Positions 12,001 to 51,794 of a stretch of 64,000 nt of DNA are shown piece after piece. The stretch's first letter is position 1; the number at the start of each line of letters is the position of its first letter. A program made the position numbers and the translations under genes. The stretch covers positions 248,001 to 312,000 of the forward strand of contig RSEE01000073.1 in the NCBI GenBank assembly GCA_003971905.1, written 5' to 3'. Below the pieces are notes generated by a model. That model was not told where the DNA came from. It did no database searches and saw only the letters and a program-made list of their open reading frames with translations. Origin of the DNA: Moniliella sp. 'wahieum' (taxonomy: Eukaryota).

Positions 12001-12273
12001 CTTGACCACCAAAAGATTGTGAGCAATAGTACTGATGGATTGGTTTGCCATCTCTCCCTCCTCGCGGGGGTGACCCTCTTGATCCGGCCCGAGCGTCGTC
12101 ATGGGGCGCCCATCCTCGTTTTACGTTGCCTTCATGAAGGCTTGCTATCCCGCCGGCTGCCTTCTGTGTGCATTTTCGGTGGAGCCAATAACAGAAACGA
12201 TCATCAAATGGAGGTGCACCCCGGGTAACCGGAAGTCTGCTTCTCTGATCTTAGATCTGACGCCGGATCATCC

Positions 12274-12367
12274 GGCAATGTGCCCGAGCGGTTAAGGGGA
12301 TTGATTAGAACGCATTCTAACCATCAATTAGGCTCTGCCTGCACAGGTTCGAATCCTGTCATTGTCG
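12274..12367 (+). tRNA. tRNA-Ser(AGA) with 12-nt intron (12311-12322)
   Basis: Acceptor GGCAATG/CATTGTC, anticodon stem ATTGA/TCAAT with TT-AGA-A, long variable arm, T arm ACAGG-TTCGAAT-CCTGT, downstream T run. Confidence 0.93.
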
Positions 12368-13328
12368 ATCTTTTTGGTCCGTTGTTGTGGGGGTCATTAC
12401 TGCCCACCGCTCGAGATGAGAGACAACTAAAGAAGAGATGGAAATAGACAATCATTTGAGGAGGCCACTCCCAGGGGCAACTGTTGTCACGTTCATCATG
12501 CGTGTCCACTTGTGCGGCTTCGAGATTTTTGCAGATCGTATAGTATGGCACGGAACTAACTACAGAAAAGGTCCTGCTAGTAGACGCCTAGTCATCATAC
12601 ATACACTGCCGGTTCATTTTCCTTTGGCGTCGTCTGAGGCTTTATATTCCCGCCCTTGTGTGCCGGCTTCTTCCTTATTCACAATCTGCTCTCTCCACAG
12701 GCTACCACGGCCCCCGCTCTTCAAGACATCCTTCACGGCACATCCGTTCACACGCTCGAGCTGGTGATGATCAACGCCCTCTAACACCTAGATCATATCG
12801 TTTCGCGACCACCACAGCTGGCTACACATATACAGAGCTTCCTGTGACCATGACGTCGAGGGAAAGTCATCCAATCATATATTCATCGTTAATGACTGCC
12901 ATAAAGGATGCACACAAAATCGTTTTTTCGGTTGTATGTGGGTTGGCTACCGTCGGAAGAACAGTCGAGAGGATTGAGGCGTAAATATGACGAGGAAGAG
13001 CCAGATAATAAAAGGCGCTGAGAGAGAGTATTATGCGTGAAAACAATGTTAAGCAAACTAACATTTCGCTCTCGCTCAGCTGGCTTCCAACTGGTGTTAT
13101 TGGCTCTGAACGGAGCTCGCGAAGATCAAATTAAGAGGCAGAGGGCAGGGGCGCCGGTACTAGTATAGTAGCCTATATAATAGCACAACGTCCGAGAGTA
13201 TATAACAAGGATTCTGTTGGCTAACTATGAGGAAGAGGAAGAAAAATGCGAGGTCCATTCAATTGTTTTCATCTCGGCTCAGAGCGTTGAGAGATATCGA
13301 AGATGTTCCGCTTAAAGGAAGGCAGCAT

Positions 13329-13902: not shown

Positions 13903-14687
13903 GGTTGGAAGTGTGAACGAAGTGCGCGATACGATGGGGCGAGAGCAAGGGAAGAGGAGAGGCGCGGTGAGTCCTGGTGGGGAAGATGTGTGTACAAGAA
14001 AGAGGCTGATGGAGGCGGCGAGGGCAAGAGGTATAAATACGTTTCGATGTTGGCGTGTTGTCCATTCGAAGAGTCTGCTCCAGATCAGATTGTGCAGGAG
14101 GATGTGCGTAGTGTGGCCAGTGCGTTTTCGGACAGGTATCTGTGATAGATCGATCCTCTTGCTGGCCCTACTATTACGCAGACGGCCGCCGGCCTCCAAC
14201 TCGGCCGTCGGTGTTCGGAGACCGGTGCCCAAGTCGCCGCACACAGCCCTTCTGCTGGGGCTCGGCGGGCAACGGTGACGGGATTTACCCCAGACGACGC
14301 TGATCAGCGTTTGCGCCCACTTGCGGCGGAAGTCGCGGTTGGATTCACCATGCAGGTTGCCGCTGCTGGAACTGTGCCGTGGCACTCGCAAACACCGACC
14401 GTTTGACCCGCCGGAGAGACCTGAAACGGCGCCAGCCGCCACTGTGGCGGCATTGTTTTCGGTGGCGGTCTGACTAGTGACTTCAAGTGAGCTTGTCATA
14501 CGCATACTAGGACGCCATGACGCGTGCCCCAGTTGATGCATGGTATACGCCATGGCACCGTGATTTGATGATTCAAATGACCCGTTTCTTCAGTCCAGGC
14601 CTCCGCCTAGGGCCTCGGGCCTAAACGTGCAATGTTGCCTCGTCCTTCTTCGACGTTCCTGTGTCTCCCGTTTCGATTAACCTATTG

Positions 14688-15757
14688 TGTTATGGGGTGC
14701 TCCGGTCATCTCTCCGGACACCGAGCTCCGCATGCCGTAGAATCCTCATCGACGCACACGCCATCCCCACGACACTTGTGGTTAAGAGCCGGCGCGGACC
14801 ACTTGCCGCGGATGTTTTCCGCGGAGTGCCAGGAGAGGACCGGACTTGAAGCTTGACGGTACGAAGTTTCGTATCCGCAGCATCCGGTCTTGATAGAACT
14901 CCACATCGACTGCGTATTGAGCTAAGTGGCTCGTGATTTGGCCAATGTCCCTTCAGCTCCTCCTCAGGCCTAGGAGTTCCGCTGTTTCCCCTCTCCTGTT
15001 TTCCTCCTTGCCCCGCAGCTTAGCCCCTGATGGCGACTGGCTGCTGGATGTTCCTCTGTAGGCATTGCTGGTTGCCACACCACCACCATAACCAGTGCGA
15101 TTGCATCACCCTCGAGGACCATCAGGACTCCAGGTCTCATCACTGCGGCCCACCGGATCGCAGTCTGGACAGAACAGGCCGCCCTTTGCCTTTTACTACT
15201 GTAGATTCCCCTTCCATCTGTTGATGCCTGTTCTGATGTTACGATATATAAGCAGCCCGGTCTGAGGCTTGCTGGCGGTGATCCTCACCGCCCAACCCCC
15301 CCGCTTCAACCCCGTCTATACCCCCGACTTCCCTCTTCACTCTTAACCCTTATACGCTTACGAATTTAGTACGACTTCCGTCGAGCACTCTGCAAGTCGC
15401 GGTTACTATTAGTAGCACTTGCTCTTCTTTAGCACTCTCTGTCTGTTCCCGCCAACTATAGCGTACCAAGTGTGGTAGCGCTGCGAGGAACGGAGTAACT
15501 CCGGAGACCCTAGACCCCGTTTTCAATTGGTCTACGACTTACGAACACGGCTCCTACCTCGGAGGGTCTGAGCTGCGGCCTTTATTGCACGCAGGCAGCC
15601 GCCCAAACTAGAGGGTCTCTCTCCCTTGCCTCTACACCCGCTCGGTTCAACCAGGATCTGAAGCAGGACCTAACGTACGTAACTCTAATGCCATGTCCAA
15701 GGGCTTTTACCCCTAACTTCCGGGGTCGAGCTCCGTCTCGGGGCTCGTCCCGTGACA
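14688..15757 (+). mobile_element. Solo LTR, copy 1, with 5-bp TSD TATTG
   Basis: TGTTATGGG...CCCGTGACA termini; TATTG at 14683-14687 and 15758-15762; TATATAA near 15245; homologous to 47753-48584. Confidence 0.9.
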
Positions 15758-15993
15758 TATTGGGGAAACTTCCTCTGACTTCTCCTGTGGCGCTTGCGAT
15801 TCACTTGAATCTTTACATTTCACTCATCTCGTCGGCCTCTTCTTTTAGATCACCGATCTCTCGATCTTTCTGACTATACAGTTTCTGTGGAGGAAATGGA
15901 GACCACAGGCGTTCAAGATTCTCGATAATGGGCAAAGAGAGAGACAGCGTGGGCCATCTCATGGGAAGGACGCAGCCTGCCCCAAAGAAAGGC

Positions 15994-39616: not shown

Positions 39617-39660
39617 GCGGACGACGGCGGGGGGAGCGGGAGGGGCCCGGCGGGGGCGGT

Positions 39661-39746
39661 GGTGGATGGATGGGTGGATGGATGGGTGGATGGATGGGTG
39701 GATGGATGGGTGGATGGATGGGTGGATGGATGGATGGATGGATGGA
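39661..39746. repeat. (GGTGGATGGATG)n / (GGAT)n microsatellite
   Basis: About six 12-mers followed by GGAT units, just upstream of the hypothetical gene. Confidence 0.95.
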
Positions 39747-42494
39747 CGGAAGAGGAATGGACGCCATGCGCCGTACGAAGCGAGGGTGCGTTAGGGACGG
39801 TAGACGGGGGACGTTGGATGTGAGAGCGGACAGAGCAGGCAGGCCAAGGCGCAGGGCAGCACGGGGGCGCAGTGCGGCGGGAAGGGTGGGTGTGTGGGAT
39901 GCGCAGGGTCTGCAAATTGCGCCCTGCCTGCACGGGGCACCCCTCGCATCGCTGCCACCCCGGCACCACCCCAGCCTCGGCCTGAGTAAGCAGGGGCGCG
40001 GGGCGGATGGCGAGGCAGCAGCTAGGTAGCGCTCACCGCTCACCGCTCACCGCTCGCCTCGCCTCGGCAATCGCGGCAGCACCACAGCGCACCACCCCGC
40101 TTGCGCTAAGCTCCAAGGTTGGTGTGCAAGCAGCGCAGGCGCTGTCGGCGGATGGGCACAGGCGCAGTGTTGCGCAGGGCGGCGCACCGCGTCGGAAGCG
40201 CTCTGCGTTATGCGGCCGCCGTCCCACACGCTGTCCCACCGCCAACTCGCGCGTACTACTGCCGAACGCGTAGCCTCCCGACAAACCCAAACGCCCCGCC
40301 GCCCACATCCCACACCGCCTGCCTCCCACGCACCCTGCTGTACCCTACTCTCTGCAAGCGATGGCAGACAGCCTCCCACCAGCGCCCCAGCACGCCGCAG
40401 CCCCCCCCCGCCCCACCGCTCATCCCCGTGTACCGCGTGCTGGGTATCCTACGTACGTCGTCCACACCCACCGACCATCCCGCTCTGGCGGCGCTTGTCC
40501 AGTGCGGCAGCTTCGTATTCGCTATTCAGCCCTTGCGGCTCGGGTCTTCTTGTTGCGCAGTACGTTGCATGTCAGCATGTCAGGCATCATGCATCCAATG
40601 CATGGCACCCGGCCAGCAGCACCCGACCTGATACAAACAGGATAACAAACAAGCATCCCAGCACCCTGGCGCGCTACCGCCATATGGCCTTGTCCATCGG
40701 CGATCACCCCGATCATCCGTCGCTTCCCGATCCAGCGGACGCGAGCCCAGGCGCAACGCCCACATACATGTCCACACGCTCGTCTCCATTGAATCCAGTC
40801 CAAGCATGCTTCCAGCACACACCGCCGCACCCCCTTCGTATTGGCTACACCACACCGCACTGCCTGCTCCTGCTCACAACCCAATAACCGCTGGCCCTTG
40901 CCCCACACCGGAGCCATATGGTGTGACTGTGACAGCCGCCTTTTCAAAAGCCCTTGTGAATATAATACCAACGAGGTTGTCACAACATTCTGTTGCAGCA
41001 GTGCGCCCACCCACCCATTGGGTCCCTAGCTGAAAGCCACTGGAAGCCTTTGAAGCTGGACTGTAATAGAAGGTGCGTAGCAGCAGTGTGAGGCCATGTG
41101 AGGCCTGAGGGCCGGTGCGCCCCTCCCCAGCGTGGTGGGACGTGCACTGCACAGTGTATGGGCTGTCGCAACAAACGCACCGCATCATGCATCACGCAAG
41201 CCTCTGCAAATCGACGGGGTCTAGGATCGGAGAGATCTGAGATCTAACGCTGACATGGCTGACAGAGGATGGCTAGATGACTATTAGATGACTACCAAGG
41301 GCTATCGGACAGGCGGCCGCTTTCCCGGCTGCGTCGCCGCCTTTAGCCTGCCGGCCCAATACCCCGCCTGTCTTGTCAATCGTCCCGATGCCCAACAGAG
41401 TGCGATGCAGTGTTCCCAGAGCACAGCCAGACTCTGGCGCCCTGAAGCGTGACGCTGCGCTCCTTCTGGAAGCCGCGAGTGTGATCGCGTCTTGTCTTCC
41501 TCTCTTCTGACTAGCTGACTAGCTAACTCCTTCCTGCCCCTCCGCTTGTCCTGCGTTCTCTCACCGGTCGCCATCAGCAGTCCATAGTCCACCCCATCGA
41601 TCCTCGATCCTCTTCATCCGACCTCTTGCTTTTGACTGCCGTTCCGCTAGTTGGCATCTCGGGATCCAGGCATAGTGTCAAGGATGCATGACGATGCATG
41701 ATGCACGTAGGCCCACACCCTTATTCGCCCCCAAGGTTCGACGTTCAACGTGTGCAACGTCCTTTTAGCACTTAGCGCTTAGCAAGCGCTCTGCGTTCAG
41801 CCGCACCGCTCTGGCTCAGCGCCAGTGCGGCTCGCCGCCTCAGCGCCTCCGTAGCGGCATACGGCATGCATACTGCATGCTGCGTACCCCAACAAACAAA
41901 AAACAAACAAACAAATGGCTGCTGCGCTGCTTAACCCTACGTTTTCGCCCGAAGAACAGGACGCAGCGACGGAACGACGGAACGACACCACTGCACCGGT
42001 ACAGTCATCGATCATCACACATCGATCATCGGTCGTCTGCATCATGCTTTCCCCAACACACGCGGTTGCGGTGGGTATGTGCATCGCTCGATCGAGTACT
42101 GCGTGCATGCACGTGATACTGATGCAGAGGGACATGGGGACACGGTGCACCACGTGCAAGCCGCGCTAGCTACACTTGACGGTCGGTGGGATACACGCGA
42201 TCCGCGTTATATAGGCCTTTTGGAGGCCTTCTTTACTTTGCGCGCGTAGGTACACGAGTAGGCCTTAAATCCGGACACACCACAGACCCTCCCGTATCCG
42301 TACCCCCTCCCATCTTCCATCTGACCTGCGGCCGCATAATGCATGCGCGACAGAACCAACGACAAAAGAGGGCGTCCCATATGGTTGTCACATGTCACAC
42401 GTAACGGTGCGTTATAGTGTTGTACGCAATAAGAACACACGCCGATGAGATCATCCGTTATTCTCTCATCCACCAGAAATGACCAGTAGGACAC

Positions 42495-42794
42495 TGTCAC
42501 CGAATGACTAAGCTCGCTCCAATTTCCAATTCCGCATCCTGTGTCTCTCGCTCTTCCCTTCCCTTTTGCTTCTGTTCTCTGCCTGATGCCTTCTGTTCCT
42601 CCCACGAACGATCTTGCCTTTCCCCCCGCCTCTGACAGGACCTTGGTCTCCCTCGTTTAGCCCCGACTGTTACATTATCGTTCGTGGGAGGAACAGAAGG
42701 CATCAGGCAGAGAACAGAAGCAAAAGGGAAGGGAAGAGCGAGAGACACAGGATGCGGAATTGGAAATTGGAGCGAGCTTAGTCATTCGGTGACA
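42495..42794. mobile_element. 300-bp fold-back (MITE-like) element, perfect 118-bp TIRs, TG...CA ends, 5-bp TSD GACAC
   Basis: Arms 42495-42612 and 42677-42794 are exact reverse complements; 64-bp spacer; GACAC at 42490-42494 and 42795-42799. Confidence 0.92.
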
Positions 42795-43553
42795 GACACC
42801 GGAAGTGTTCTCTTCCTGTACAAGTACTCCACCATGCAACAACGCTCCACCTTTTCAGCTTGAAGCTTCTCCACGTCTTCCAAGGTATCCAGCATCTGAA
42901 CTTGAGCCTTCAAGCTTTTCATCGTTCTCATGTTTTGAATGTGCAACAGCTGTGCCTCACCTTCCGCGCACCCGTGCCGGAACAAGCACAGCTGTAAATA
43001 TAAGCGGCACAGCCACGCGTATCGCAGCAGAGTAGAACGGCGGCGTACTCGCGGTCACTGGCACCGGCGTCGGTCACCTCCATCCTCTTCGATCTGAGAA
43101 TCTCATTACTATCACGTTCATCACGTTCACCGCTCTCTGATCTCTGATCTCATCGATCTTCCGAGATAGCTCAACATGTTCACAACGTTCTCAACGCTCT
43201 CATCAACGTATCATATATCAACCCTATACCCACATCCATATATAGCACAGCCTTATCCAGCAAAAACCCATTACATGCATCTCGCTATGGTGCGGAGCTC
43301 TCAGGCTGTGAGCGCTGGCTGAGAACAGGTGGCTCCACACTTTCCATGCTGGTGCACATGCTGACGTATGGGAGCCGCATGTGTGTAAACATCACCACGG
43401 CAGAGCTCCGAAAGGCGAAAAAGGCTCTGCGCAAAACCAGTTTATACACACGGGGTTCTTGCGAAAGCGTCTGACCGATCTGATCCACAGCCTTCCACAG
43501 CCCGGCCGTCTCCCGACTGTGATGTGCGACGCGTGACCGTCCGTGTCACTGGC

Positions 43554-43605
43554 CACTAGTCACTAGTCACTAGTCCACTAGTCACTAGTGAAGCTTGAAG
43601 CTTGA
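43554..43605. repeat. Tandem palindromic heptamers, (CACTAGT)n then (GAAGCTT)n
   Basis: Read directly from the sequence. Confidence 0.9.
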
Positions 43606-43731
43606 AGTCGCTCGCGACATCCGGTACAGTGAAACCCAAGCCCAAACAAACATTTGTCGCACCTTTGCCGCAATCATTAATCATTAATCAACGAACCCCA
43701 CCCAAAGCCTCAAAGCCTCCAACGCGCCTCG

Positions 43732-43782
43732 TTTGGAGATATGGCTTTTTGGAGATATGGCTTTTTGGAGATGTGGCTTTGG
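43732..43782. repeat. Three copies of a 16-bp unit TTTGGAGATATGGCTT
   Basis: Read directly; third copy has a substitution. Confidence 0.85.
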
Positions 43783-44499
43783 TTCGGGTGCTATAGGGAC
43801 AGACACGCTGACAAGAATCACACATCACGAATAACTTGCATGTGTCAACATATATGTCAACACACTTCTTTTTCACAACATTATCTGGTGATTTTCTTGT
43901 TAGGAAAACATGCTGCACTGAACACTGAACACACTTTAATCATCCGAAGAACGGCAGGGTGTTGCGGACGGTGGCTTGGATGGAGGAGTACATGTTTCGG
44001 TATAGTATCTGGGTTTCCGTATGGAGGCTGCCGACGATCCGTTGAAATGCTTGAGAAGGAGTTCAAGGGGGCGCACTCCGGAAGGGATGGTACATGAGGC
44101 CTGAGGTGTGCATCGAGCCCATGAGACATCCGCGCCACCAGCGCCACGAGCTTGCAATACGAGACGCCAACTCCGTATAACCTTCCACATCGCACTGTGA
44201 GTACTGAGTATTGAACCTTGAGCACTGTCATCGCCAGGACTGGCACAGTGTGTATTGATTCTGGCGGTATAGAAAGAGGGACGCGTGGTGGTGAGAGTAC
44301 CTTTGGTCCGGCGATGGTAGTGAACGTTGACACAGTATAAGCCTCTCAGACGGATTCACGCATACTTTTCTTCAACACACACGCGCCTCAGCAGAGCGCT
44401 CTCAGCAGAAGCGTTGAACGTTGACATGACTCGGTCAATACTCTTATTTGGAGCTGTATAGAGGGCATATCATCTCGATGTTGGCACGGGGCGGTCGCA

Positions 44500-45960
44500 T
44501 CCTCTCCTGACACAGCTCCCCATTCCATATTGGCCTTCTCTCATCGAAATAGTTCCTGTACGACTATAGTGAGAGGAAGTCAGCGGACGGAAGAGTTGAT
44601 ATATCCATTTGCTGCGAATATCCTCCATGGCCGCATGCATACACAGGATGAGCCCAACGCTACATAGGATGCTTCTCGTTCCCATTTTCCTCAGGCTTTT
44701 TAGCGACACCCATTTATGTTCTTGAGCCGACAGCGCAGCGCTTAGCACTCTTAAAAGGAAGCGCACCCAGTCATGCCTGCCAAGACGCCGCCGGTGGAGT
44801 CACGCACCCGTGGCGAGCCCCGCTGAGGTAGACCTGGCACCTGAGACGCCCTACTGAACGGGATCGGGACCAGATTTAGGAAGAAGGAAGGGGTCATTCT
44901 CCTAGGTCCTTGCGTATGGGAGGTGAGGATTGTCGCCGATCGTGATTTCGGGACTAGGTCGACAGCCTGAGGCCGGAGATATGCCCAAATTTGCTGGCAT
45001 AAACACCGTTCAGGGACTCCTCTTACCGTATGGAAGTACTTTACTCACAATACCACAAGCTGCGCCCGCTGCTCCGCACCATAGAAGTGGAGTGCGATCT
45101 GGATGATGTGCTTCACCGAGATTGACACTTTCATCTACTCTGCCGAGAGTTTCGACGGATGCGAGGGAACGAAATTCCTCAAGATAGGAAGAACGATCAT
45201 TATGACATTATGCTCGTGAGCACACATATTCGATGAATGTTGGGGGAGGATGAGATTGCCCGCTCTACTCGTACATTGCGCCCCACGCACACGTCCGTGG
45301 CCCACGAGATCAACGACTATTTGATCACCACTTTTGTTGCCCCCACGCACGCATAAACCCCGGACGCATTTACGACATAGCGCAGGCGCTGTTCAAAGAG
45401 AGGTGGGAGGAGGAAAGCAGGCGCAGGAACTACGCTAGAAGCTCCACGGGCCCGATGGTGGCAATTTGGTCGAGCACAGCAATGCGTTTAACTACACTAC
45501 CGACCCCTTTTTGATAGTGTACACGTCATCAATATCCATGGTGGCAGTGATGTCGCTGATGTCAGAAACCTTAATTATTCTGACATCGAGGATGTCAGCG
45601 CCATCTCGGCTCTCCCTAGCGATCCTGAGGTCAAGGATGCGAGTGAGGTCAAATCTGTTGTCGGCGATCACAACGACATCAGTGCCATCAGTCTTCAAGC
45701 TTCAACGTTCAAAAGCAAAAGGCAATGGTCCCTGGATCTGCTTATGCAACCTCGATGGTGGCCGGTCAGAGGGGCACCCTCGCATCGTATCTTTGTGCGA
45801 TGGCCCCGTGTTCCGCCGCTGTTCCGCCTCCTTGGGTGTGTTTGCCGCGTATTCGCTGCTTCGCCACAGTTGACCAGCGATGGGCCAGACATTCATCGAT
45901 CACACCACTACTTTTCTTTGCATCTCGTCCAACTGAGCGATCTGTGGGCGACCGCTATGC
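44500..45960 (-). pseudogene. Degenerate relic A of an unidentified gene family (boundaries approximate)
   Basis: CPSDRPPSRLHKQIQGPLPF and DNRFDLTRILDLRIAR..SRDGADI match the relic at about 50.0-51.8 kb; multiple stops. Confidence 0.5.
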
Positions 45961-46288
45961 GCCTCACTAGGAAACCACCGCGCCCACGGCCCGGTCTGCT
46001 GAGGCTTCGCCCCAGCCTGTTGGGCTGGGTCACCGTTGCCACCGTAGCCGCCGTTCCACTGGTCCACCGGTCCACCGTTCCACGCTGGAACCCTTCCACG
46101 CTGGAGAGACGAAATAATATCACCAACGAGGAGACCACCGGGCCTACGGCCACGTCAGCTGGGGCTTCGCCCCAGCTCGGTGCTTGGCCGCCCCTTAGCC
46201 ACCGTTCCCCCTAGAGATACGCGCTGGCTTGGTGTGCTAGAGTGCGACTTGGGAGCACTCGCGATCCTACGGATCAGCTGCAAAGCAG

Positions 46289-46439
46289 CCTTCAGACAAG
46301 CGTGAAGGCAAAGTGGTGAGCCACAAGTCTTCAAGCAACGTCTCATTGAGGAGCAACAGGTCAAGAAAGGAAGCAGAGGCGTACCTTCAGACAAGGCGTG
46401 AAGGCAAAGTGGTGAGCCACAAGTCTTCAAGCAACGTCT
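46289..46439. repeat. Direct repeat of about 55 bp, two copies
   Basis: CCTTCAGACAAG(G)CGTGAAGG...GCAACGTCT at 46289-46343 and 46384-46439. Confidence 0.9.
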
Positions 46440-46717
46440 GAAGGGAAGGAGAAGGAGAGAGAGAAGGGAGATGGAGCGAGCAGGGCGTGCGCGGCCTGCG
46501 AGCGGAACGCTTCCGCTCGGCTAGGCGAGCATCACCGATCCATTGAGGGCCGCGCAGGAGAACCCTAGCAGCACCCTCTAACATGGTGGACTGGAACGTG
46601 GCACGCGTCAGCTGATGTAAAAGTGTACAGGGGCGTTTCCCACATTTCCCATTTTTTCACCCGCCTCATGTAGTCGAAGAGTACTAGAGTACTGGTGGAG
46701 CTAGTGTAGCGGCTAGC

Positions 46718-46784
46718 GAAGCTTGAAGCTTGAAGCTTGAAGCTTGAAGCTTGAAGCTTGAAGCTTGAAGCTTGAAGCTTGAAG
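46718..46784. repeat. (GAAGCTT)9 array
   Basis: Nine perfect copies at 46718-46780 plus GAAG. Confidence 0.97.
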
Positions 46785-47000
46785 AGCTAGTGAAGCGAAG
46801 CTTGAAGAGAGTAGAGATCTGAGAATCGCAGTAGGCGATCAGTCGATGGCGCCGCAGGCAGCAGGGTTGTACTGGTGCTCTCATGCGGCCCTGTGCGGCG
46901 CCAGTACAGGGGCTGTGTAGTGTAAGGTGCATCCCAAAGCATCTAAATACGATGGGCGTGAGAAAAATGGTCTCGTCGGTCTGAGCAAACGAGCAACTCA

Positions 47001-47270
47001 TGTAACGCCGCAGGCGCAGACCGCGTACCGGAAGGTGTTGCGCGATCAGGTGGCTCGTTCTTTGGCCAATGTCCCTTCAGTTCCTCCTCAGGCCTAGGAG
47101 TTCCGTTGTTTTTCTCTCCTGTTTTTCCTTGTTCCGCAGCTTAGCCCCTGGTGGCGACTCGCTGCTTAATGTTCCTCTGTAGTAGGCGTTGTTGGTTGGC
47201 TTAGACCATTACCACCCACTAGTGCGATTGCATCACCTTCGAGGACCATCTGGACTCCAGCTCTCATCAG
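47001..47270 (+). mobile_element. LTR-like fragment sharing a module of about 220 bp with solo LTR copy 1
   Basis: Begins TGTAACG; 47050-47269 is homologous to 14926-15142. Confidence 0.6.
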
Positions 47271-47595
47271 AAGGCGGCACATGAGAGCACCGCGACGCCT
47301 TTAAAGCTCTGTCAATGATAGGGATGCAGTATAGAGAAAACTAGTAACTCCACTCCTCCTCTCACTGGCATGGTTCGGTGTAATCGTAATCTAATGTCCT
47401 TGACCCAAGTTGCAACACACGGTGTTGAGCAACCGGGTGCCTCCTTTGTTTTGGCCAACGTCTCCAATCGCCAAGTGGTGCCCCAGTAGGGTAAAGACGT
47501 AGTGCAAAAGCGCGGAACCTTCCTGGTCATTCCTTCCAATACTCCTTCCTGGAAGGCACAGGAGTATTCTCTAGCCTCTGTATTTTCTTGACTCT

Positions 47596-48805
47596 TGTTA
47601 CGAGGCGCCCCGGTGTCTCCCGACGCAGAGCCTCGCATGTCATAGGCATCTCTTACTAGCACGTCAGTCTCTACATAGGCTAGCAAGAGAGAGCTTATCT
47701 ATCCATGCAGCTGGGATCCTTCGCAGCCCGCTCAATATGGGCGCATGGGTACTGTTATGGGGCGCTCCGGTCATCTCTCCGGACACCGAGCCCCGCATGT
47801 CGTATAGAACCCTCATCGACGCACACGCCATTCCCACGACACTTGTGAGTAAAAGCCAGCACGGACGACTTGCCACGGATGTTTTCCGCGGAGTGCCAGG
47901 AGAGGACCGGACTTAACGGTACGATGCTTCGTATCAGCGGCATCCGGTCTTGATAGAACTCCACATCGACTACGGCCCCCCCCGGCTCGCAGTCTGGACA
48001 GAACATGCCGCCCTTTTCCGTTTACTACTGTAGATTCCCCTTCCTTCTGTTGACGCCAGTTGTGATGTTACGATATATAAGCAGTCGGTCGGAGGCTTGC
48101 TGGCGGTGATCCTCACCGTTGGGCCCCCACGTCAACCCCCGTCTATACTCCCGACTTCCCTCTTCAAGCTTCACTCCTCACCGTTATACGCTTACGAATT
48201 TACGACTTACGTCGAGCACTCTGCAAGTCGCGGTTACTATCAGTAGCACTTGCTCTTATTTAGGACTCTGTCTGTTCCCGCCAACTATAGCGTACCAAGT
48301 GTGGTAGCGCTGCGAGGAACGGAGTAACTCCGGAGACCCTAGACCCCGTTTTCAATTGGTCTACGACTTACGAACACGGCTCCTACCTCGGAGGGTCTGA
48401 GCTGCGGCCTTTATTGCACGCAGGCAGCCGCCCAAACTAGAGGGTCTCTCCCTTGCCTCTATACCCGCTCGGTTCAACCAGGATCTGAAGCAGGACCTAA
48501 CGTACGTAAATTTAATGCCATGTCCAAGGGCTTTCACCCCTGAATTCAGGGGTCGAGCTCCGTCTCGGGGCTCGCCCCATGATAGGTACGATGCTTTTTG
48601 TTCCCATTGCGCCCACAGTCTTGGCAGAACCCTTTGTCTGCTGCGCCCCCTACCGGACCGCGGACTTGACAGAACAAACTGCGCTTTATGCCTTACTACT
48701 GTAGCTCTCTTGCTAGGCATGTATTGGAGACTGATGACGTGTTTGGAAGAGATGCCTATGACATGTGTGGCTCCCCGTCGAGAGACACCGGAGCGTCCCA
48801 TAACA
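47596..48805. mobile_element. Element with diverged inverted termini of about 100 bp related to the LTR 5' end, interrupted by solo LTR copy 2
   Basis: TGTTACGAGG... versus ...CCCATAACA; flanks ACTCT and GCTCT. Confidence 0.7.
47753..48584 (+). mobile_element. Solo LTR, copy 2, with 5-bp TSD GGTAC
   Basis: TGTTATGGGG...CCCCATGATA (terminal CA changed to TA); GGTAC at 47748-47752 and 48585-48589; homologous to 14688-15757. Confidence 0.88.
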
Positions 48806-49979
48806 GCTCTGTAGCTCATCCGCTCATGTGCAAAATGCAATACACCGTCAACCGCGTCAACTGCCTGCTCTCTGGTCTTTCACATCATTATTCAGCCCAC
48901 CGGACACGGTTCCATGCGCTAGTATGTCCGTCGAAGCGGACGGTGCACTACACAGTGCAAGTACTTGCGCTATGTGTGGCAGTTGCAGCACGGTTCCATG
49001 TGGCGTATACCAGGCCAAGTGCCAGTCGCCAAGTGGCACCACAGTAGGGTAAAAGGGCAGCCTAAGGGACCCTTCCTTATCATTCCTTCCAACATTCCTT
49101 CCTGGAGGGCAGGAGTATATTCTCTAGCCTCTACTGTATTAGCTCTCATGTGCAAATGTTTAGTAGCACTCGTAGCAGTTATTAAAGGCGAGGCCAGCTC
49201 TTACTCATCCCACCTCCTGAACGCTTTCGGACCCCGCAAGTCTCGATATGACTCCCATCAGACCCGGGTGGATATTTTGATGACAGCCACTGGCCTAGCG
49301 AGGCAACCAGTCTGGATCCAGGACCAGCAGGACGACATCCGCGCACACCCCGGCCATACGTTTGTTCACCTCCAAGCCGACTTCCAAGCCGGGGCCAGCC
49401 GCCTGTTGGAGAGCATGACGTGCCCGGCACCCCATGTGAAGGGCCATGATCCGACTCCAAGATCAGGTCGCAGACGTCCGCGAGGCCCTCGGTGGAGTAA
49501 ACGAAATGCAACATGAACTCCATGAAGCCCAAAACGGAAAGTTCTTCATGAGATCATGACGCGGACGGCCACGTCGCAGGCCAGTGCGAGTCAAGATGAA
49601 GAAACGCGGACTGGAGATGATGTTGGCCAAGTCCGCAGCCCTATGTCTGTAAGCCTCCAACATTTTTCATCTTCAGATGATTAAGGCTGACCACAGCATC
49701 TTTTCCGTTTAACCGCATTTTTTTTGCAACGCAAAAACAGCTAGTCATGTGTTGAATGAAGGCGCCTGAGAAGCGTCTCATCTCTAGGAGCCTTCTGTGC
49801 GGTGTGTCCTATCTATCTTAATCGCTCGAGACCCAGCTTTCTCTCTGACAAAAGAAGAAGAAAGGAAGGTTGGGCTGAACAGGAATGGGCCAAAACTCAC
49901 GCTGTCAGACCGAGGCCTCCTGGCACCGTTATCGATGCTGTAAAGGGTGCCTAGGCCAAGAAAAGTACGGGCAAGCATA

Positions 49980-51794
49980 ACGCTAGCGATAGCGGCAGCT
50001 ATCCGCTACGAGATCGTAACTAATGTGCGTATCTTCATTTGGTTCCTTTCCTCTTCACGATACGTTCTGAACGCTTCTACCCGAACCCACTTGCAGGTGT
50101 GGAGCCGCACCACTGGGTACGTAAGGCCCGCGGGCCCACGTTGGGTGTCGCCAGTGTCGCCTCATTTCGTAAGAAGGTTGTCAACATGACTGGGAGACTA
50201 TGACCGCAACCTCAAAACGGCGTGGAGGGCAGGATCCTTCCGATGCGCATTCCCATCCTCCTTCATCTCTGTCTCGATTTGCTGAATATACAACCAGGTG
50301 GAGAAGCTGTCTAACGGACTTTGAAACCAGTGGGACATTTCACTGGATGTCATCCTGAGACTGCGATGCAACTGTACCTGCTGGGCCTCGTTGCAGCGCC
50401 TGTGATACTAACCCTTCGAACACATGTGGTGACCGGCCCGCCGATATGCAATACCAATCTATCCAAATACCAGATCTCCTTTTTTGTGGTTTAATTATAG
50501 GATTAGCCATTATTATTGGATAGTCCCCCCCATTGGCAAGGAACGTGTACGCAACAGGAGCAGTCATAGTCCTCGATGTCGACAGTGTCATCGGGGAGAC
50601 ATTGATGTCGGGGTACCCGGGGACATCTATGCCATCATTGGAGACCTATTACCCCTATGGTATCACCCACGTCAATGACTCCCCCGACGTCTAAGCCCCC
50701 CCCGACGTCAATGACACCCCCGACGTCTAAGCCCCCTCCGACGTCTAAGGAACTCACGACGTCAATGACACCCCCGACGTCAATGACATCCCCGACGTCT
50801 AAGCCACCCACGACGTCTAAGGCATCATTGGTAGTGCTGTCATCGCCGACATATTTGACGTGAACGCTATCATTGATAGCGCGTAACCCTTTGATGTTTT
50901 CCCCGTCCCTGATGCCTTTGATACATCGAGCGAGTCTGATATCCATGTCGCCAGTGACATCCATTTCGTATCTGACATCATGGACACCACTACCGTCCCC
51001 GTCATCGAGAACAGCTGCGTTATTTACTTGATTTCTATGAAACCAAAGTTCTCGTCCTATAATCATGATAGTCATAGATATCCACGACATCAATGGACGT
51101 CAGAAAGGGGTCCGTAGTGTACACTTAGGTCTTTTCTTAATGCCACCAAAAGTGGCGAGGAGCAATACGACACGTCCGGGAGGAAGTCAAGGGGTTACGG
51201 ACTACAAAGTGATGGGGCCTGGAGCATTCGGAGGATCAGGAATCGAGGTGGTTCACACTTTGCGCAACTCCGTCGGGCACAAGAGGGGATACGGCGTTTG
51301 CGTGCGGGCGAAGGTGATGAACGAGGGGACCGCCGAACGCCTTTTTTTGGAACGGGCCGGGGGAAAATTCGATTGCTGTCATGGAGCAAGCGGAAGGAAT
51401 ACGACGAAAGAATGCTACCTGTACCTCTTTGTATTATGGTGCGCCCAAAACCTTCTCTTCTTCCCCTGGGTCATGACGATTCAAGAATAATATGCCACCA
51501 AGATGCCGAGCAAGATGTTTGGGCACTGGAAGGAATTAACTGATGAGTCTCACTGGAGATGCGGTTCGCCGCTGTACCACGTTCATTCGGATCCACGCGT
51601 GCTACATCCAACAGCATATAGTTTTTGGAAGCGAATGGTGGGGACGCCTTAGGGCCCTAATCCGTTGGAGACTCTATTGGTTTCCTATTGGGTTTGGCGC
51701 CAAGAAGCAGCACACGCTGGAGGAACTGGCCAGTCAGGCGCAGGGTTTCTTTTTCCCAACCGTAACATCTGTAAATGACATGAAAAGAATGTAA
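49980..51794 (+). pseudogene. Degenerate relic B of the same unidentified family, with an internal inversion at 50494-51063
   Basis: Flanks match relic A on the + strand, the middle matches on the - strand; intron-like GTGCGT...TTGCAG near 50025-50096. Confidence 0.5.
50666..50822. repeat. 18-bp minisatellite, nine units each containing (G/C)ACGTC
   Basis: Units at 50668, 50686 ... 50812; minus strand reads as (L/I)DVGG(G/V) hexapeptides. Confidence 0.9.

Follow-up and report, generated by a model that had tools for sequence, protein, structure and literature searches.

How did a 300-bp fold-back with two identical arms come to lie in the genome of the fungus Moniliella sp. 'wahieum', and what kind of enzyme put it there? 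The element, which we call FB1, occupies positions 42495–42794 of a 64-kb stretch of contig RSEE01000073.1 (GenBank assembly GCA_003971905.1, positions 248,001 to 312,000 of the forward strand). We refer to this whole stretch as the window, and all searches were made within it unless stated otherwise. FB1 has the general anatomy of a miniature inverted-repeat transposable element (MITE), with a length of 300 bp, perfect terminal inverted repeats (TIRs) and a 5-bp target-site duplication (TSD), and an initial annotation took it for a young element moved by an integrase-like enzyme. In our assessment the chances are about even that FB1 is a recent insertion, by the integrase of a long terminal repeat (LTR) retrotransposon, of a fold-back DNA that had served as its own template. 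Much of the case turns on a second fold-back, FB2 (47596–48805), which lies 5 kb away and is older.

The basic architecture of FB1 is as the initial annotation described it. Its two arms are complementary at 118 of 118 positions, without a mismatch, and enclose an asymmetric spacer of 64 nt (Table 1). Read base by base, the termini are TGTCAC...GTGACA, the last letters being ...GTCATTCGGTGACA with the final base at 42794, and the pentamer GACAC stands directly before the first base and again directly after the last. Inward of the tip, the left arm contains two CCAAT motifs and a CT-rich tract. An inverted-repeat search returned slightly longer arms, 42494–42612 and 42677–42795, of 119 nt each and 100% complementary, with 64 nt between them. 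In the extra, 119th pair the last C of the left GACAC is matched with the G that opens the right GACAC, and thus 118-nt arms, a 64-nt spacer and a 5-bp duplication are the correct description. The same letters can also be parsed as 119-nt arms with a 3-bp duplication (ACA). By our arithmetic the 5-bp duplication is favoured about 4:1, because the 3-bp parse needs two 1-in-4 coincidences and the 5-bp parse needs one. A Pfam scan of the 149-codon minus-strand frame at 42207–42656, which ends inside FB1 and was the only FB1 frame scanned, found no family; FB1 has two further frames, one of 94 codons on the minus strand (42500–42781) and one of 75 codons on the plus strand (42636–42860).

As single-stranded DNA, the segment 42470–42820 folds at −168.7 kcal/mol, compared to −43.9 ± 4.1 for 100 shuffled versions, none of which folded as well (0/100; z = −30.4). 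A pentamer identical to the pentamer 305 nt downstream is found at 79 of 63,690 window positions (0.0012), and the terminal pattern TGTNR, which the FB1 tips TGTCA/TGACA fit, has a background rate of 0.0061 per position and strand. A chance origin of FB1 is ruled out. Within the window the element appears to stand alone: blastn found no second copy of its arm or its spacer, the next best matches being 20 nt at 90%. Scans of metagenomes gave no match to the 24-nt FB1 tip and none to the 25-nt left flank. There are no tandem repeats in 42300–43000 and no 7-bp repeat flanks FB1; Rfam has no family at FB1 and gave five sub-threshold matches elsewhere in 41000–50000.

What enzymes leave such marks? 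TGTNR is the terminal pattern of Gypsy LTRs and of Ginger elements (PMC2836005), and TSD lengths are given as 3–6 bp in LTR retrotransposons and as '4 or 5 bp for Ginger2' in the available text of PMC10045372. The initial annotation had treated TG...CA ends with a 5-bp TSD as a hallmark of Ginger/TDD DNA transposons as well as of LTR elements. For the former this rule is too broad: according to the available portion of PMC2836005, Ginger1 makes 4-bp CCGG/CCGT duplications, Ginger2, with its TIRs of ~50–180 bp and TGTNR termini, makes 4-bp TSDs in metazoans, and only TDD-4 and TDD-5 carry 5-bp TSDs.

Within the window itself there are two solo LTRs, copy 1 (LTR1) and copy 2 (LTR2), and the second is nested in FB2. 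Copy 2 is 88–91% identical to copy 1 and has the same tips, its 3' end having decayed. Both have TG...CA tips and 5-bp duplications, and thus integrase-type insertion has occurred in the window. Solo LTRs, whether of Ty3/gypsy chromoviruses or of Ty1/copia elements, resemble FB1 in their TGTNR-type TG...CA tips, their 5-bp TSD, their length of a few hundred bp and their lack of coding sequence. The ends of a solo LTR (U3 and U5), however, differ from each other and share a terminal inverted repeat of only a few bases, whereas an identical 118-nt sequence terminates FB1 on either side. A solo LTR is what remains when an integrated element recombines; FB1, by contrast, must have entered the chromosome in its present form. 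With its two identical ends, FB1 is no solo LTR. Drosophila Foldback elements and ordinary MITEs such as Tourist, Stowaway and mimp are, like FB1, short and non-coding with long inverted arms. The arms of the Drosophila elements, however, are made of tandem subrepeats and their TSD is 9 bp, and the common MITE classes have TSDs of TA, 3 bp or 8–9 bp. The absence of subrepeats and the 5-bp TSD mean that FB1 is no Foldback element of the Drosophila type.

FB2 provides the closest comparison. A search for inverted repeats of at least 28 nt lying within 5 kb of each other gave 12 pairs, only two of which, FB1 and FB2, are longer than 37 nt, and both of these have TGT.A tips. FB2, listed in this search as the pair 47596–47666 and 48735–48805, is 373 nt long once the nested LTR copy 2 is taken out. 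When anchored to the 5' tip of LTR1, its left and right arms scored 23 and 25, compared to 4.1 ± 2.4 for shuffled sequences (0/1000 shuffles reached the score in each case). Taken together, the blastn matches (Table 1) and the anchored alignments show FB2 to be composed of LTR positions 1 to ~272 followed by inverted LTR positions 1 to ~101. On either side it stops precisely at the LTR tip (TGTTAC... and ...CATAACA), and its arms are ~82% identical to each other, with three indels. A paralogous repeat at 49022–49170 matches the left flank of FB2 up to ~10 nt before the insert and also matches 12 nt of the right flank, from 17 nt past FB2 onward, with 4 nt between the two matches. This repeat, in which the two flanks of FB2 come together within ~15 nt, resembles an uninterrupted site and, as far as its letters go, fits FB2 as an insertion, though the joint is blurred. 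Judged by its build, FB2 is a fold-back made from one LTR tip that this genome inserted at an earlier time.

Table 1 Positions in the window of FB1, FB2 and the two solo LTRs, followed by the blastn alignments of FB2 (numbered without the nested copy) to LTR1 and LTR2
Feature	Position	Strand	Basis or remark
Left TSD copy of FB1, GACAC	42490..42494	.	direct reading
FB1 left arm, 118 nt, starts TGTCACCGAATGAC at 42495	42495..42612	+	100% complementary to right arm
FB1 spacer (fold-back loop), 64 nt, asymmetric	42613..42676	.	direct reading
FB1 right arm, exact inverted left arm, end ...CGGTGACA	42677..42794	-	inverted-repeat search
Right TSD copy of FB1, GACAC	42795..42799	.	direct reading
FB2 left part, LTR 5' tip TGTTACGAGG...; left arm 47596-47691, LTR-like to nest point	47596..47752	+	alignments
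FB2 central part, colinear with LTR	48590..48704	+	blastn to LTR2, LTR1
FB2 right arm, inverted LTR 5' tip, end ...CCCATAACA	48705..48805	-	alignments
Solo LTR copy 1 (LTR1), TGTTATGG...CCGTGACA	14688..15757	+	TSD TATTG (14683-14687, 15758-15762); reference for LTR tips
Solo LTR copy 2 (LTR2), nested in FB2	47753..48584	+	TSD GGTAC (47748-47752, 48585-48589)
FB2 nt 1-49	LTR2 1-52	plus	E 1e-6
FB2 nt 186-272	LTR2 195-281	plus	E 1e-5
FB2 nt 209-272	LTR1 456-517	plus	E 3e-8
FB2 nt 325-373	LTR2 52-1	minus	E 1e-6

The two fold-backs are alike in plan, with 118 + 64 + 118 nt in FB1 and roughly 96 + 175 + 101 nt in FB2, TGT.A tips, pentamer flanks and an asymmetric middle. They differ in that the arms of FB1 are identical and its parent element is not among the LTRs of the window, whereas the arms of FB2 have diverged and are demonstrably an LTR 5' tip. 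The identity of its arms indicates that FB1 is young. The link to an LTR integrase is strengthened by the finding that the arms of FB2 are the LTR 5' tip, and by the two solo LTRs with 5-bp duplications. Of the earlier view of FB1 as a young, integrase-moved element, the insertion marks (a clean 5-bp duplication and TG...CA tips of the TGTNR type) and the youth are supported; a connection of the arm itself to an LTR finds no support within the window.

The initial annotation had pointed out that the last six bases of FB1, GTGACA, are also the last six of solo LTR copy 1, which is indeed the case (...CCGTGACA at 15757). The FB1 tip TGTCACCG agrees at 7 of 8 positions with the reverse complement of the LTR1 3' tip, TGTCACGG, and the two tips of LTR1 itself agree with each other at 6 of 8; we estimate p ~0.02 for a 7/8 agreement with one of about four tips. 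As for the suggested check of whether the arm is the end of an LTR, no LTR of the window matches the FB1 arm beyond this 6–8-nt tip. A deeper homology was also considered and rejected: in a MAFFT alignment FB1 and FB2 have a TCCGCAT in common at equal offsets, and anchored shuffle tests were not significant.

How could a DNA with the same tip at both ends be made and inserted? In the integrase-inserted fold-back that we propose for FB1, the inserted molecule would have been a linear 300-bp duplex with the same retroelement tip (TGTCAC...) at each end. A retrovirus-like integrase, most likely that of one of this genome's LTR retrotransposons, would have attached the two tips to phosphates of the target that lie 5 bp apart, at the GACAC site. 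The 5-bp duplication implies that two ends acted together; had a hairpin been joined at one end only, there would be no duplication, and two separate hairpins should not yield arms of exactly equal length on either side of an asymmetric spacer. Reverse transcription had probably gone astray to yield the inserted DNA: nascent DNA starting from an LTR tip may have run for ~182 nt, turned back and, using itself as template, copied its first 118 nt in reverse. In FB2 the start would correspond to the U3 tip, where plus-strand DNA begins. Two other routes, the integration of two hairpins and the replication of a hairpin-capped fragment, were rejected, as they explain equal arms with an asymmetric spacer less simply than one linear molecule does. 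The product would carry no feature, among those looked for, that retrotransposition needs: FB1 has no direct terminal repeats, and no coding sequence was found in it. Thus a dead-end insert in single copy would be expected, and no propagating family.

Self-priming of strong-stop DNA is familiar from retrovirology. Like FB1, autointegration circles and the snap-back products that reverse transcription can give are aberrant DNAs with a portion of the element in inverted orientation. They differ in that they are extrachromosomal circles or hairpins, whereas FB1 sits in the chromosome between two copies of its target. Circles with inversions and deletions are reported for the DNA of virus-like particles in Arabidopsis in the available text of PMC7197481.

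Several observations weigh against the origin proposed for FB1. Anchored alignment of the first 70 nt of FB1 to six LTR-type tips gave p values of 0.86–1.0 (2000 shuffles each), and blastn of FB1 against the LTRs of the window returned only chance matches of 9–17 nt; with no significant similarity between the arm and these tips, the LTR parentage of FB1 stays an inference. Among the translations of 100 open reading frames (ORFs) of the window (18 + 41 + 41) we found no integrase, reverse transcriptase or transposase family, and thus no source element nearby. The step by which a snapped-back single strand becomes a duplex with two free tips has no explanation in our scheme. The flanks of FB2, ACTCT (47591–47595) and GCTCT (48806–48810), form a duplication at only 4 of 5 positions. 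In the literature searched, as far as its text was available, there was no description of chromosomal, integrase-made fold-backs with one LTR tip at both ends. Most directly, a TIR of 118 bp, a TGTCA tip and a TSD of 4–5 bp would suit a MITE of the Ginger2/TDD type equally well, since such elements share with FB1 the TIR of 50–180 bp, the TGTNR termini and the 4–5-bp TSD in the accessible part of PMC2836005. On this alternative, which we regard as unlikely and yet as the most serious of those considered, FB1 would be a short non-autonomous member of a multi-copy family, moved by cut-and-paste by an integrase-related transposase. Young MITEs typically have such a size and such perfect arms, and two identical DNA ends call for no special step from a cut-and-paste enzyme. 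Malassezia globosa is a fungus related to the smuts. A Ginger2-like vestige is recorded in it, in the form of a vestigial gene without TIRs (PMC2836005, available portion), and the same portion of that source describes no fungal Ginger element with a 5-bp TSD. In length the TSD of FB1 agrees with those of TDD-4 and TDD-5. The AT-rich target RTATAY preferred by Ginger2 (PMC2836005, in the same portion) is unlike the target of FB1, GACAC, which is not AT-rich. Moreover, FB1 has a single copy in 64 kb, with no autonomous partner in the window, where none of the 100 tested ORFs matches an integrase-like family, and its neighbour of the same build, FB2, derives from an LTR and not from a TIR transposon.

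The remaining alternatives fare less well. MITEs of other classes are told apart by their tips and targets: CACTA elements have CACTA/CACTG tips, PIF/Harbinger elements insert at TWA, and Transib-type elements carry a CAC...TG heptamer. The letters of FB1 do permit a 119-nt arm flanked by ACA, as in a PIF/Harbinger- or CACTA-like MITE, or an assignment to a class with 5-bp TSDs such as Transib. This we consider very unlikely, as the two extra coincidences of the 3-bp parse disfavour it at the ratio given above, and the resulting tip, CTGTCAC with the duplication ACA, or the tip TGTCAC of the 5-bp parse, matches neither CACTA/CACTG nor the Transib heptamer. FB1 might instead have arisen on the spot as an inverted duplication, by template switching during replication or repair, so that one arm and the spacer are native sequence and served as the source from which the other arm was copied off the first. 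Such snap-back synthesis readily yields perfect arms and an asymmetric spacer, and yet the copying should have run on into GTGTC, the reverse complement of the left flank, where FB1 is in fact followed by GACAC; the exact repeat of 5 bp and the tip of TGTNR type would both become coincidences at the background rates given above (0.0012 and 0.0061). We therefore assign template switching a very small probability. Least probable of all is an artefact of assembly, for instance a long read, chimeric or folded back, that found its way into the consensus: FB1 lies inside unique sequence and distant from the ends of the window, a read chimera should create neither an asymmetric spacer of 64 nt nor tips of the integrase type nor an exact duplication of the target, and FB2, a diverged element of the same build, is not explicable in this way.

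The window comes from a GC-rich fungus, and its long frames have matches to Zds_C, Prp31/Nop, PIG-M mannosyltransferase, citrate synthase, a Zn2Cys6 factor and other families of this sort. FB1 lies at the left edge of a gene-poor block at ~40.5–52.6 kb that contains nested LTR relics; GC content falls from ~0.61 to 0.51–0.56 at 42–52 kb, and none of the 41 frames scanned in the block had a Pfam match. We also asked if FB1 had disrupted a gene, as removal of FB1 and one GACAC leaves a minus-strand frame of 180 codons (42210–43054), and rejected this idea. Of 930 positions sampled in this non-coding block, 19.9% lie within a frame of at least 180 codons, and a simple shuffle gave p 0.0275. The GC content of the frame at third codon positions is 0.61, below that of seven checked genes of the window (0.64–0.74). 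Its encoded halves have neither a Pfam match nor a credible relative; the C-terminal half has no word-sharing homologue, and its only two matches among 1.84 billion representatives are weak, each broken into nine stretches and probably repetitive.

Other features of the window were noted along the way. A segment of solo LTR copy 1 of ~223 nt (14915–15137) is absent from copy 2 (at 47964–47974), and the piece occurs a third time, by itself and with 85% identity, at 47050–47269. Given the direct repeats ACTGCG/ACTACG at the borders of the segment, a simple deletion in copy 2 is easier to envisage; the arrangement is probably due to such a deletion together with a stray LTR fragment, and we do not favour a small mobile piece. 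The only tRNA found by ARAGORN is a 96-nt tRNA-Ser(AGA) at 12273–12368, with solo LTR copy 1 another 2.3 kb downstream.

Several repeats lie in or near the gene-poor block. Runs and fragments of a 7-nt unit, GAAGCTT, which is the palindrome AAGCTT plus one base, occur at 46718–46784 and also at 43591–43608 and 42860–42917; in Rfam this array had only sub-threshold matches to microRNA models. At 50630–50845, 18-nt units of CCGACGTCAATGACACCC alternate with CCGACGTCTAAGCCCCCC, giving nine overlapping 72-nt copies. Two direct repeats of the non-coding block are a perfect one of 44 nt (46300–46343 and 46396–46439, 96 nt apart) and one of 80 nt that is 74% identical (45966–46045 and 46126–46205, 160 nt apart). 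A 12-nt array, (GGTGGATGGATG)n, at 39637–39758 stands in a GC-rich stretch with a strong GC skew (0.31 at 38–40 kb), and the long frames around it have no Pfam match.

If FB1 is indeed a self-templated fold-back inserted by an LTR integrase, some MITE-like inverted repeats would be born from failed reverse transcription, with the LTR integrase as the inserting enzyme and no DNA transposase involved. In annotation, where TIRs with a TSD are usually read as a DNA transposon, class I relics would become harder to tell from class II relics in practice. The young FB1 and the old FB2 would also form a dated series for the decay of long inverted repeats. A wider form of the hypothesis, that LTR-retrotransposon integrases of this fungus repeatedly insert self-folded DNAs with one LTR tip at both ends, seems to us doubtful rather than probable; on it, retroelements would have provided a route to MITE-like inverted repeats and to loci that could give rise to hairpin RNA. 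Should FB1 instead prove to be a Ginger2/TDD-type MITE, it would be evidence for an active DNA transposon of the integrase type in a fungus, which is rare.

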